DNA of 64,000 bases. Source: Mustelus asterias. Taxonomy: Eukaryota. The position numbers and the translations under genes were made by a program. The stretch covers positions 43,276,001-43,340,000 of the forward strand of contig NC_135808.1 in assembly GCF_964213995.1 (NCBI RefSeq). The letters run 5' to 3'. Under the pieces are notes generated by a model that saw only the letters and a program-made list of their open reading frames with translations, was not told the origin of the DNA and did no database searches. Of this stretch, positions 28,466-41,900 are shown piece by piece; position 1 is the stretch's first letter, and each line of letters starts with the position of its first letter.

Positions 28466-28967
28466 GTTCTAAATTTAAACCATAATGTGTTGTGGTCACT
28501 ATCACTAAAATGCTCTCCCAATGCATCCTCAAACATCTATTTGGCTTTGTTTCACAGAATTAGATCCAGCACTGCGATGTCCCTTGTTGTACCTTCTACA
28601 TATTGACGTAAAAATCCGTCCTCAATACATTTCAAGAAATCTGCTCCCTCTAAACCCTTGATAGTATCACTAGCCAAATTAATGTTGGGGAAGTTGAAAT
28701 CTTCTAAAATATAGTTATCCCATTATTACACACCTCAGTGAGTTGTCCATATATAAGTATCGATAAGTATGGCAAGTTTTGGGAACCTTGGATAACGAGA
28801 GATATTGAGATCAAAAAGGAGGTGGTATTGGGGTTCTTGAGAAACATTAAGTTAGACAAGTCCCCAGGACTAATGGGATATACCCCAGAATACTGAGGGT
28901 GGCAAGGGAGGAAATTGCTGGGTCCTTGAGAGAAATCTTTGTATCCTCACTGGCTATAGGGGAGGTC

Positions 28968-29199
28968 ATGATGTGGAGATGCCGGCGTTGGACTGGGGTA
29001 GACACAGTAAGAAGTCTCACAACACCAGGTTAAAGTCCAACAGGTTTATTTGGTAGCAAAAGCAACTAGCTTTCGGAGCACTGCTCCATCCACATAGATA
29101 TCCACTCCATCTGACGAAGGAGCAGTGCTCCGAAAGCTTATGGTATTTGCTACCAAATAAACCTGTTGGACTTTAACCTGGTGTTGTGAGACTTCTTAC
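28968..29199. mobile_element. Penelope-like inverted pLTR insertion with hammerhead ribozyme-like core
   Basis: ~100-bp inverted arms; CTGACGA-aGGAGCagtGCTCC-GAAA at ~29111-29135; TSD aggggaggtc (28958-67 / 29200-09). Confidence 0.8.
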
Positions 29200-29607
29200 A
29201 GGGGAGGTCCCAGAGGATTGGAGAATAGCCAATGTTGTTCCTTTGTTTAAGAAGGGTAGCAAGAATAATCCAGGTAATTACAGGCCGGTGAGCCTGACAT
29301 CAGTGGTAGGGAAATTATTGGAGAGGATTCTTCAAGACAGGATTTACTCCCACTTAGAAATAAGTGGACGTATTAGTGAGAGGCAACATGGTTTTGTGAA
29401 GGGGAGGTCGTGTCTCACGAACTTGATCGAGTTTTTCGAGGAAGTGACGAAGATGATTGATGAGGGTAGGGCAGTGGATGTTGACTAGATTGACTTCAGT
29501 AAGGCTTTTGACAAGGTCCCTCATGACAGACTGGTGCAGAAGGTGAAGTCGCATGGGATCAGAGGTGAGCTGGCAAGGTGGATACAAAACTGGCTCGGTC
29601 ATAGAAG

Positions 29608-37516: not shown

Positions 37517-38916
37517 CAGTAAGAAGTTTAACAACACCAGGTTAAAGTCCAACAGGTTTATTTGGTAGCAAAAGCCACACAAGCTTTCGGAGCTCTAAGC
37601 CCCTTCTTCAGGTGAGTGGGAATTCTGTTCACAAACAGAGTTAATAAAGACACAAACTCAATTTACATGAATAATGGTTGGAATGCGAATACTTACAACT
37701 AATCAAGTCTTTAAGAAACAAAACAATGTGAGTGGAGAGAGCATCAAGACAGGCTAAAAAGATGTGTATTGTCTCCAGACAAGACAGCCAGTGAAACTCT
37801 GCAGGTCCACGCAACTGTGGGGGTTATAAATAGTGTGACATGAACCCAATATCCCGGTTGAGGCCGTCCTCGTGTGTGCGGGACTTGGCTATCCGTTTCT
37901 GCTCAGCGACTCTGCGCTGTCGTGTGTCGCAAAGGCTGCCTTGGAGAACGCTTACCCGAATATCAGAGGCCGAATGCCCGTGACCGCTGAAGTGCTCCCC
38001 AACAGGAAGAGAACAGTCTTGCCTGGTGATTGTCAAGCGGTGTTCATTCATCCGTTGTCGCAGCGTCTGCATAGTTTCCCCAATGTACCATGTCTCGGGA
38101 CATCCTTTCTTGCAGCGTATCAGGGAGACAACGTTGGCCGAATTGCAAGAGTATGTACCGTGTACCTGGTGGATGGTGTTCTCACGTGAGATGATGGCAT
38201 CTGTGTCGATGATCCGGCACGTCTTGCAGAGGTTGCTGTGGCAGGGTTGTGTGGTGTCATGGTCACTGTTCTCCTGAAGGCTGGGTAGTTTGCTGCGGAC
38301 AATGGTCTGTTTGAGGTTGTGCGGTTGTTTGAAGGCAAGAAGTGAGGGTGTGGGGATGGCCTTGACGAGATGTTCGTCTTCATCAATGACATGTTGAAGG
38401 CTCCGGAGGAGATGCCGTAGCTTCTCCGCTCCGGGGAAGTACTGGACAACGAAGGGTACTCTGTCCACTGTGTCCCGTGTTTGTCTTCTGAGGAGGTCGT
38501 GCGGTTTTTCGCTGTGGCGCGTTGGAACTGTTGATCAATGAGTCGAGCGCCATATCCTGTTCTTATGAGGGCATCTTTCAGCGTCTGGAGGTGTCTGTTG
38601 CGATCCTCCTCATCCGAGCAGATCCTGTGTATACGGAGGGCTTGTCCGTAGGGGATGGCTTCTTTAACGTGTTTCGGGTGGAAGCTGGAGAAGTGGAGCA
38701 TCGTGAGGTTATCCGTGGGCTTGCGGTACAGTGAGGTGCTGAGGTGACCGTCCTTGATGGAGATGCGTGTGTCCAAGAATGCAACCGATTCCGGAGAGTA
38801 GTCTATGGTGAGTCTGATGGTGGGATGGAACTTGTTGATGTCATCATAGAGTTGTTTCAGTGATTGTTCACCATGAGTCCAAAGGAAGAAAATGTCATCG
38901 ATGTATCTCCACATCA
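37517..38916 (-). mobile_element. 5'-truncated Penelope-like element (RT C-terminus + GIY-YIG endonuclease + pLTR)
   Basis: RYIDDIFFLW...FLD...LYRKPT...HP; C..C...NVV.LIRC...WYIGET...LRQRMNEH; TSD ttctgccagtca (37505-16 / 38917-28). Confidence 0.92.
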
Positions 38917-41900
38917 TTCTGCCAGTCAGCCAATCCTCTATCCATGCCAGGATCTTTCCATTAACATCATGGGCACTTAACTTATTTAACAGTCTCCTAT
39001 GTAGCAACTTGTCAAAGGCCATCTGAAAATCTAAATAAATCACATCCACTGGATCTCCTTTATCTAACTTCCTTGCTACCTCCTCAAAGAACTCTAACAG
39101 ATTTGTCAGACATGACCTCCCCTTGATGAAGTTGTGCTGACTCAGTCCTATTTTATCACGCACTTCCAAGTACTCTGTGATCTCATCTTTAATAATGGAC
39201 TCTAAAATCTTGCCAATGATTGAAGTCAGGCTAACCGGCCTATAATTTCCCGTTTGCTGCCTTCCTCCCTTCTTAAACAGCAATGTTACATTAGCAGCTT
39301 TCCAGTCCTCTGGGATCCTCCCTGCCTCCAGTGATTCCTGAAAGATCACCACCAATGCCTCCACGACTTCCTCAGCTATCTCTTTCAGAATCCTGGGGTG
39401 TAGTCCATCCGGTCCAGGTGATTTATCCACCTTCAGACCTTTCAGTTTCCCCAGAACCTTCTCCTTAGTGATTGCCACTACACTCACCTGTGCCCCCTGA
39501 TTCTCCTGGAGCTCTGGCATCTCACTGGTGTCTTCCACCGTGAAGACTGATGCAAAGTAACTATTCAGTTCCTCTGCCATTTCTTTGTTTCCTATTATTA
39601 CTTCTCCAGCCTCATTTTCCAGTGGTCCAATGTCTACTTTTGCCTCTCTCTTACCTTTTATATATTGAAAAAAACTCTTCCTATCTTCTTTTATATTGCT
39701 AGCTAGCTTACACTCATAATTCATCTTCTCCCCCTTATTGCTTTTTTAGTTGTCCTCTGCTTGCTTTTAAAGGTTTCCCAGTCCTCTGGCCTTCCCACTA
39801 ATCCTCACCATTTTGTATACTTTTATGCTGTCCCTCGCCAGCCATCAATGCCTCATTCTCCCCTTAGCACGTTTCCTCCTTCTTGGGATGAATTTCTGTT
39901 GTGCCTCCCGAATAACCCCCAAAGACTCCTGCCATTGCTGTTCCACAGTCTTCCCTGCTAGGCTCCCTTTCCAATCAACTCCCTCATGTCTTTGTAGGTA
40001 CCTTTATTTAATTGCAATACTATTACATCTGAATCCAGCTTCTCCCTCTCAAACTGCAGGGTAAATTCTATCATATTGTGGTCACTGCTCCCTAAGGGTT
40101 CCTACACCTTAAGTTTCCTAATCAAGTCTGCCTCATTGCAAATCATCAAATCCAGAATAGCCTGTTCCCGAGTAGGCTCTGTCACAAGCTGCTCCAAAAA
40201 CCATCTCTTAGATATTCCACAAATTCCTTTTCTTGGGATCCACTACCTACCTGATTTTCCCTGTCCACCTGTATATTGAAGTCCCCCATGATTATTGCAA
40301 TATTGCCTTTTTTATATGCCTTTTCTATTTCCTGATTTATTTTCTGCCCCACATCCTGACTACTGCTAGGGGGCCTGTACATAACTCCCATCAGGGTCAT
40401 TTTAGCTTTACAATTCCTCAACTCTACCCACAGAGGTTCTCTGCCTCCTGATCCTACATCACTTCTTGCTATTGATTTAACTTCATTCCTTACTAAGAAT
40501 GTAACCCCGCCCCCTTTGCCCATCTGCCTATCCTTTCGATAGGACACGTATCCTTGGATAGATCCCAGCCCTGATCCCCTTGCAGCCATGCCTTTGTGAT
40601 GCCCACAACATTGTATACTGCGCGCATTTAGGTACAACACCCTCAGTCCTGCATTGACTACCTCCCTTCTCATACTTGTCACCTTTTTTGCTCTGCCTAA
40701 GGTTAGATTCCTACCACCTTCTATACTCTCTGCTCTATTATGTGGTCTTGAAACTTTATTAACCTCTCCTGAGCCCTTGGCTCCTTTAACTATTTGAAAG
40801 TCCTCATCATTAACTGGCACTTGTACCCTCTCCTATAACTTTGATTTTCTAATTCTCCATACAACTGAATCCTCCCCTCACTATTTAGTTTAAAGCCCTA
40901 CCTACAGCCCTAGTTATACGATTCGCCAGGACTCTGGTCCCAGCATGATTCAGATGAAGACTGTCCCATTGGAACAGGTCCCCTCTTCCCCAATACTGGT
41001 GCCAATGTCCCATAAATTCAAACCCATTCCTCCCACACCAATCTTTGAACCATACATTTACCTCCTTAATCTTATCGACCCTGTGCCAATTAGTTCGTGG
41101 CTCAGGCAATAATCCAGAGATTATTACCTTTTTGGTTCTGCTTTTTAATTTAGCTCCGAGCTGTTCCGATTCCCTCAGCAGAATCTTTGTTCCTGTTCTA
41201 CCTATGTCATTGGTACCTATGTGGACCACAACAACTGGATCTTTACCCTCCCATTCCAAGTTCCTCTGCAGCCCAGATGAGATATCCCGAACCCGAGCAC
41301 CAGGCAGGCAACACAACCTTTGGGACTCTCAATCCTGGTCACAGAGAACTGTGTCAATGTTCCTAACTATACTATCCCCAATTATGACTGCATTTCTTTT
41401 GAACGGCTCCCTGTACCACGGTGCTGTTGTCAGTTTGCTCATCCTCCCTGCAGAACCCATTCCCATCCACACAGGGAGCAAGAATCTCGAACCTGTTGGA
41501 CAAGTTCAGGGACTGAGGCTCCTGCAACCCTACCTCCTGGATCCCTCTACCTGCCTCACTCGCAGCCACACCCTCCTGTCCCTGTCCACTGGCCGAATTC
41601 AAGGTATTTAATCTAAGAGGTGTGACTGCCTCCTGGAACACAGTGTCCAGGTATCTCTCCCCCTCCCTGATGTGTCGCAGCGTCCAAAGCTCAGAATCCA
41701 GCTCATCCACTCTGAGCCGGAATTCCTCAACCAACCAATACCTACTACAGACATGCTCACTGGGAACCACAATTGGTTCCACCAACTTGCATGAACAATA
41801 CATCACCTGACCTTCCATCTCTATTTTGTTTAATTAGGTTTTAATTTGGGTTTAAAATTTTTCTATTATATATCTCCTTATTACCTCAGTCTCAACGCAA

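Follow-up and report, generated by a model that had tools for sequence, protein, structure and literature searches.

A Penelope-like element of Mustelus asterias inserts at a spaced palindrome, of which a hot spot in CR1 LINEs is a by-product

Three insertions of a Penelope-like retrotransposon lie within CR1-type long interspersed nuclear elements (LINEs) in a stretch of the Mustelus asterias genome (assembly GCF_964213995.1, contig NC_135808.1, positions 43,276,001-43,340,000, forward strand), the whole 64,000 nucleotides (nt) of which are referred to here as the window. The target of this element is almost certainly a spaced palindrome, (C)TG-NN^N12(13)^NN-CA(G), in which two bases separate TG on one side and CA(G) on the other from a target site duplication of 12 nt, or sometimes 13 nt. 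The reading favoured overall, to which we assign a probability of about 0.8, is that of a palindrome-targeting element of the Neptune/Nematis type, the site being likely cut by the protein as a dimer, with one nick per strand. The preference is real and well supported, and the accumulation of insertions at one position of CR1 is a by-product of it.

From the 3.68 Gb genome, 286 loci were sampled: 30 within the initial 1.3 Mb of a single contig, 181 picked through rare single-base variants within the element, which makes their choice independent of the flanks, 40 random stretches of 10 kb and 35 loci bearing long copies. Among 353 element blocks, 28 were removed for having no 3' end, 27 for lying at the edge of a locus, 12 because the end fell off the boundary and 13 as duplicates. 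The remaining 273 bounded inserts comprise 181 with a callable duplication, three in the window and 178 elsewhere, and 92 without. The main count admits only sites at which the duplication scores at least nine. A second, motif-blind set consists of the 62 non-window sites with a longest duplication of exactly 12 nt, and no motif was used in aligning them.

In the motif-blind set, TG occupies positions -4/-3 in 49 sites and CA positions +14/+15 in 51, and 45 sites have both. The next preferences are for C at -5 and G at +16. TG-N16/17-CA is centred on the duplication at 134 of the 178 non-window sites, compared with 5-16 (mean 10.75) for eight shifted controls, and the length of the spacer is narrowly distributed (16 nt in 104 sites, 17 nt in 31, each of the other spacings in 4-21 sites). 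Long and intact copies, fetched once the rule had been formed, fit it in 19 of 22 cases. As the main count depends on a duplication score, and sequences from the CR1 hot spots recur in the sample, the pattern could in principle be an artefact of duplication calling, or of a few CR1-borne insertions having been copied many times. This is hardly credible, because the motif is retained by 39 of 56 motif-blind sites once the hot spots are set aside, the hot-spot inserts are diverse, as described below, and pattern counts across the whole genome, which need no duplication call, agree. At the tail-less end of the element, CAG is found at 14 nt 1,615 times versus 187 times at 20 nt, with a shorter control prefix that favours the control; at the tail end, the corresponding figures for CAG are 3,234 and 433.

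The same arrangement is evident in the three window insertions. In the orientation of the element, ACTGGCT flanks insertion 1 (28949-55) and insertion 2 (29589-95), and ATTGGCT flanks insertion 3 (38934-28, minus strand); all three duplications are 12 nt long when started at the T of GGC^T. These positions and duplications had been described in an earlier sequence-only reading and are confirmed; that CAG lies exactly 2 nt past the duplication in each case, making every site TG-N16-CA, had not been noted. The first two insertions share a host, a LINE second open reading frame (ORF2) copy at 28770..31160 on the plus strand, and the third lies in a copy of another CR1-type subfamily at 36460..40650 on the minus strand, the ends of both being approximate. 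LINE open reading frames (ORFs) in the window match Pfam Exo_endo_phos and RVT_1, identifying them as ORF2 with an apurinic/apyrimidinic (AP) endonuclease and a reverse transcriptase (RT). The label CR1 is that of the sequence-only reading and is probably correct. Once rejoined, all three empty sites read through as LINE ORF2, and the host ORF runs in the orientation of the element in each case.

Insertion 1, of the second subfamily of the element (B), is a fold-back insert at 28967..29196 on the plus strand, consisting of an inverted tail and terminal repeat followed by a direct terminal repeat. It is preceded by the half-site CTG-GC at 28950..28954 (TG at 28951-52) and the left copy of the duplication at 28955..28966, and followed at 29197..29213 by the right copy (29197-208) and the half-site CC-CAG (CA at 29211-12); the two copies differ by one mismatch, and the right one overlaps the element end by 3 nt. 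Insertion 2, of subfamily A, is likewise a fold-back on the plus strand, spanning 29607..30088, with an inverted arm carrying the tail at 29607-29829 and a direct arm at 29830-30088. Its left flank, 29590..29606, contains CTG-GC (TG at 29591-92) and the left duplication copy (29595-606), and its right flank, 30089..30105, the other copy (30089-100), again with one mismatch, and GA-CAG (CA at 30103-04). Neither fold-back includes coding sequence. By comparison, insertion 3 is a 5'-truncated copy of subfamily A, 1.4 kb long and 98% identical to intact copies, at 37517..38916 on the minus strand. The exact duplication is found at 38917..38934 as the 5' copy (38928-917) adjoining TTG-GC (TG at 38932-31), and at 37500..37516 as the 3' copy (37516-505) adjoining GG-CAG (CA at 37502-01). 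The first 12 nt of this insert are likewise inverted tail, which meets the ORF at a stretch of 4 nt common to both, and the insert retains the broken C-terminus of the RT and the GIY-YIG nuclease at 37827-38908 on the minus strand. Across the junction, a 541-amino acid open frame links the RT of the host LINE to that of the Penelope element (38120-39745, minus strand), likely a chance in-frame join.

Insertions 2 and 3 occupy the same W-L-x-x-R-x-Q codon (amino acid 605 of the mapping reference) in two CR1-type subfamilies, as had been proposed from the sequence; insertion 1 is found elsewhere in ORF2, at amino acid 473 in L-A-x-G-E-V-P-E. Both positions recur in the sample, with 15 of the 178 insertions at the former and five at the latter, which constitutes a second hot spot. 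At W-L-x-x-R-x-Q the hot spot is genuine, with 984 matches genome-wide versus three at a K-A-F-D control upstream in the same gene, the 11-mers used for the two being equally common in background sequence (nine each in 400 kb). The motif very probably explains it: with Trp encoded by TGG and Gln by CAG, six codons apart, the sequence spells TG-N16-CA, which is present in 19 of 30 background copies of the hot-spot codon. A weight matrix built from 87 sites outside the hot spots predicts that 2% of insertions would fall here when only the core is used, 17% with core and flanks and 30% with all columns, compared with 6% seen; the matrix is enough to account for the hot spot, and the fit is not tight. 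Hot-spot inserts vary in CR1 subfamily, length, junction and element subfamily, and are found in both orientations, and the spread of one chimeric CR1 was rejected as their origin.

The original interpretation of these insertions was a lineage specific for AYTGGC^T that parasitises CR1 LINEs. In its favour, TGGC^T is enriched approximately 15-fold, at 23 of 178 sites compared with about 1.5 expected at its background frequency, 20 of the 178 insertions are at the two CR1 positions, and one contig end considered below is rich in CR1 insertions. The expected TGGCT enrichment thus does exist, in a minority of sites. Yet AYTGGC^T itself flanks only 12 of 178 sites, and two of 158 outside the two hot spots, where TGGC^T is found at 10 of 158; as a one-sided target it was rejected, being that of a minority when the motif is two-sided. 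Nor is CR1 a preferred host. The comparison used 163 dispersed insertions (the 178 non-window sites minus 15 from the CR1-rich contig end) and a CR1 library, made up of LINE copies from the window together with a joined reference for ORF2, that was identical for insertions and background, so that unrepresented subfamilies are missed in both. CR1 contains 32 of the 163 insertions, compared with 264 of 1,500 random positions (17.6%, p = 0.52). A tropism for CR1 was accordingly rejected, the share being like that of the background, as was targeting of another retrotransposon, which would place most insertions inside the host, when 131 of the 163 lie outside it. The shared orientation relative to CR1 holds for the three window cases and fails more widely, with 23 insertions in the same and 16 in the opposite orientation (p = 0.34; 9:6 at the W-L-x-x-R-x-Q hot spot), and a fixed orientation was rejected. 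Given also the 984 matches against three at an equally common CR1 site nearby, a CR1-parasitising, AYTGGC^T-specific lineage is very improbable. What survives of the earlier proposal is the hot spot at the shared CR1 codon and a genuine preference for sequence, far more pronounced than published accounts suggest, for a target other than AYTGGC^T.

Priming accounts, in part at least, for the T of GGC^T. Outside the hot spots, the most frequent bases are G at -2 (40%), C at -1 (46%) and T at 0 (38%), all weak preferences. The first base of the duplication matches the next template base at 81 of 120 tail-less junctions and 71 of 100 tail junctions, where permutations give 33% and 29%, and the position of the join on the element RNA varies to fit.

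The element responsible is numerous, with 58,458 exact matches in the genome to a 23-nt pattern from its 3' end, a figure in which fold-backs count twice and the second subfamily is left out. At least 21 intact open frames were found in 20 fetched loci, differing from the first by zero to three residues. The repeat unit is 3,097 nt long and arranged in tandem, and encodes an ORF of 893 amino acids, the start codon of which lies at the end of a 38-nt tail. At one locus, L161:300-3523, a long copy is found in the opposite orientation within another copy of the same family; in the first copy at L267, tandem intact copies have a short internal repeat near the stop codon that alters the last residues. 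The RT matches Pfam RVT_1, and its model has a predicted local distance difference test (pLDDT) score of 90.5, with telomerases as the top seven Foldseek rows (best E value 3.7e-9). The C-terminal nuclease gave no Pfam GIY-YIG match, and a sequence search of solved structures returned only T4 endonuclease II, with an E value of 0.66. Its identity was settled by the fold search, which aligned 91 residues with the I-TevI catalytic domain (Z score 10.5, root-mean-square deviation 1.9). The GIY-YIG residues Y, G, R, E and N are conserved in 54-55 of 55 aligned rows, and those of a CCHH motif, C797, C801, H821 and H837, in 55, 54, 55 and 55; before the nuclease, C754, C759 and C762 of a CX4CxxC linker are invariant (55 of 55).

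Because both the CCHH motif and the CX4CxxC linker are present, these sequences place the element as a young Penelope-like element of the Neptune/Nematis type, rather than Penelope/Poseidon, following the criterion in PMC8557442. Membership of the Penelope/Poseidon clade, for which the absence of a linker zinc finger is expected, was rejected. Relatives are found in sharks, turtles, an alligator, a frog, ticks, lancelets and a sea urchin, the closest named being shark proteins with 84-95% identity. In contigs from four runs, aligned with the element end, the majority flanks have CA starting 11-14 nt past it in eight of ten long-flank rows from three other organisms, judged by eye at an agreement of only 0.35-0.43, a weak hint that relatives have the half-site in common. 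Hammerhead core letters and a stem can be recognised, by their letters alone, in the terminal repeats of both subfamilies, as in insertion 2, where the putative core (CTGAAGA, stem, GAAA) is at 29996..30022 on the plus strand; four loci gave no Rfam hammerhead match.

The fold-back form accounts for 107 of 181 inserts, and at least 11 of 35 others have an inverted tail remnant. At the inner junction of the fold-backs, the arms overlap by 0-7 nt in 16 of 73 cases and the remainder are gapped, many of them by long intervals, without a clear microhomology rule. In such inserts, for example loci L268-L286, strict matching often leaves tens to hundreds of bases at the inner junction assigned to neither arm, which in part reflect older divergence and in part may be captured DNA.

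The palindrome and these structures suggest a mechanism. Each GIY-YIG domain would nick its own strand 2 nt 5' of CA(G), generating 12-nt 3' overhangs, with N-terminal helices predicted to pair two copies of the protein. Both overhangs would then act as primers for reverse transcription of the element RNA, to which they are paired by 1-3 nt. Short pairing and two start regions on the RNA are seen in the junctions themselves: one region is close to where the terminal repeat ends, and the other, approximately 38 nt beyond it, is at the start codon. Joining of the two copies would yield a fold-back insert with the tail on one side only. A dimer with two primed ends is judged rather probable. A dimer model of residues 1-480 scored 0.37, versus 0.00 for the best of three controls, with at least 27% of contacts agreeing between runs, pLDDT of at least 63 and a head-to-tail helix at 42-80. 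In calibration, 21 of 30 solved pairs and none of 23 single chains attained the mark used for such scores; by group, 17 of 29 pairs from eukaryotes and seven of 16 from animals did so, and none of 30 single chains. The model supports N-terminal self-binding, as a prediction.

Alternatively, one protein might act on the same target in two steps, nicking the first strand, reverse transcribing and then nicking the second strand at the same half-site motif; the geometry of the complex would in that case fix the 12-13 nt. GIY-YIG homing enzymes nick sequentially as monomers, which is also how Penelope-like elements are conventionally understood (PMC8557442); the nuclease fold is nearest to that of I-TevI, and the difference between the insert ends, with the tail on one side, implies an order of events. 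However, the half-sites are near equal in strength in the motif-blind set (49 against 51 of 62), the spacing is almost fixed, most inserts carry the element 3' end at both ends and the dimer model passed its controls, making sequential nicking by one protein unlikely.

A number of observations weigh against a palindrome cut by a dimer. The dimer score is barely above the mark, was obtained with the nuclease domain left out and may reflect memory of like folds, and the scars left in the genome do not separate concerted from sequential nicking. The full palindrome is missing from 44 of 178 sites, and the older subfamily B fits less well than A (31 of 52 versus 95 of 115). At the 92 of 273 bounded inserts lacking a callable duplication, the right half-site appears only as an excess of CA at offsets 12-14 (16, 20 and 21 versus about seven). 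TG-N16-CA starts at 0.6% of background positions, and specificity is modest because the motif is short. The weight matrix predicts the hot-spot share loosely, and its fuller versions over-predict the use of CR1 (28-41% versus 20%). Finally, in the first 1.3 Mb of contig C1 (G000), 10 of 15 insertions are in CR1, far above the level elsewhere; adding these 15 sites brings the total to 42 of 178 (p = 0.064). This excess is probably due to the local density of CR1.

Much of this organisation has been described in Neptune/Nematis elements (PMC8557442), which similarly have a single ORF with a telomerase-like RT, C-terminal GIY-YIG, CX4CxxC linker and CCHH motif, as well as tandem and inverted terminal repeats and a tail of 30-40 nt at one end. 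They are reported to differ in having a moderate target preference, a bias towards microsatellites and duplications of variable length, whereas here the duplication is 12-13 nt and the TG...CA palindrome lies in non-repetitive sequence: 145 empty sites judged by eye for the reported microsatellite bias were ordinary sequence rather than simple repeats. For PAc, a Poseidon element of Anolis carolinensis, cleavage and extension of both strands in vitro have been reported, along with a predicted head-to-tail N-terminal dimer (PMC11167929) that resembles the one modelled here; PAc too is reverse transcribed from two internal sites bounding the tail. PAc belongs to a clade without the linker zinc finger, however, prefers an AT-rich ATT motif, with no fixed stagger or palindrome reported in the parts of that study covered, and has start sites more than 100 nt into the ORF rather than at the start codon. 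The Penelope elements of Adineta vaga (PMC3846280) share an inverted terminal repeat, an optional 31-bp tail and short duplications, although the latter are 8, 9 or 10 bp or absent, targets are AT-rich and inverted junctions have been read as self-priming, not as the product of primers at both ends of the target. Outside retroelements, I-TevI, T4 endonuclease II, Eco29kI and Hpy188I (PMC12774661) have the same catalytic fold and a preference for short cleavage motifs, and some are dimers cutting both strands; I-TevI makes CNNNG nicks 2 nt apart, in contrast to half-sites 16 nt apart, a 12-nt stagger and a nuclease fused to an RT. In the literature searched, which did not cover Repbase, two older papers or the supplements of PMC8557442, no description was found, in elements of this class, of a spaced palindrome as target or of a duplication fixed at 12 nt. 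The target rule departs from published descriptions of a moderate or AT-rich preference, microsatellite bias and variable duplication length; the layout of the inserts has already been published.

The surroundings of the three insertions are rich in other repeats. Between insertions 2 and 3, at 31305-35174, is a tandem array of about 96 copies of a 40-bp unit with a 94% match, and further arrays are found at 1-1776 (30 bp), 16082-22978 (33-35 bp) and 58334-64000. In a near full-length LINE ORF2 at 25530-28318 on the plus strand, long open frames encode an AP endonuclease and an RT, and the W-L-x-x-R-x-Q site is unoccupied. Paired identical matches indicate a local duplication with an offset of 2,847 nt, involving 9270-10725 and 12117-13572.

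The insertions bear on how Penelope-like elements choose their targets, cut them and form fold-backs with a tail on one side; the one full-length protein studied in vitro showed a loose AT-rich preference. The thousands of young insertions in this genome give exact predicted nick positions on both strands, and with near-identical intact 893-amino acid copies at hand, the model of a dimer with two primers is directly testable. Tentatively, integration by linker-bearing Penelope-like elements may be two-fold symmetric and more akin to that of transposases than of LINEs, with a dimer reading inverted dinucleotides about 1.5 turns apart, then nicking and copying at both ends at once; the (TA)n bias of related clades might then be a self-complementary special case, and the protein a sequence-selective double nickase leaving a 12-nt overhang. 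In CR1, the conservation of one retrotransposon's protein, through a Trp and a Gln six codons apart, turns its DNA into a hot spot for another, although the host element as such is not targeted.

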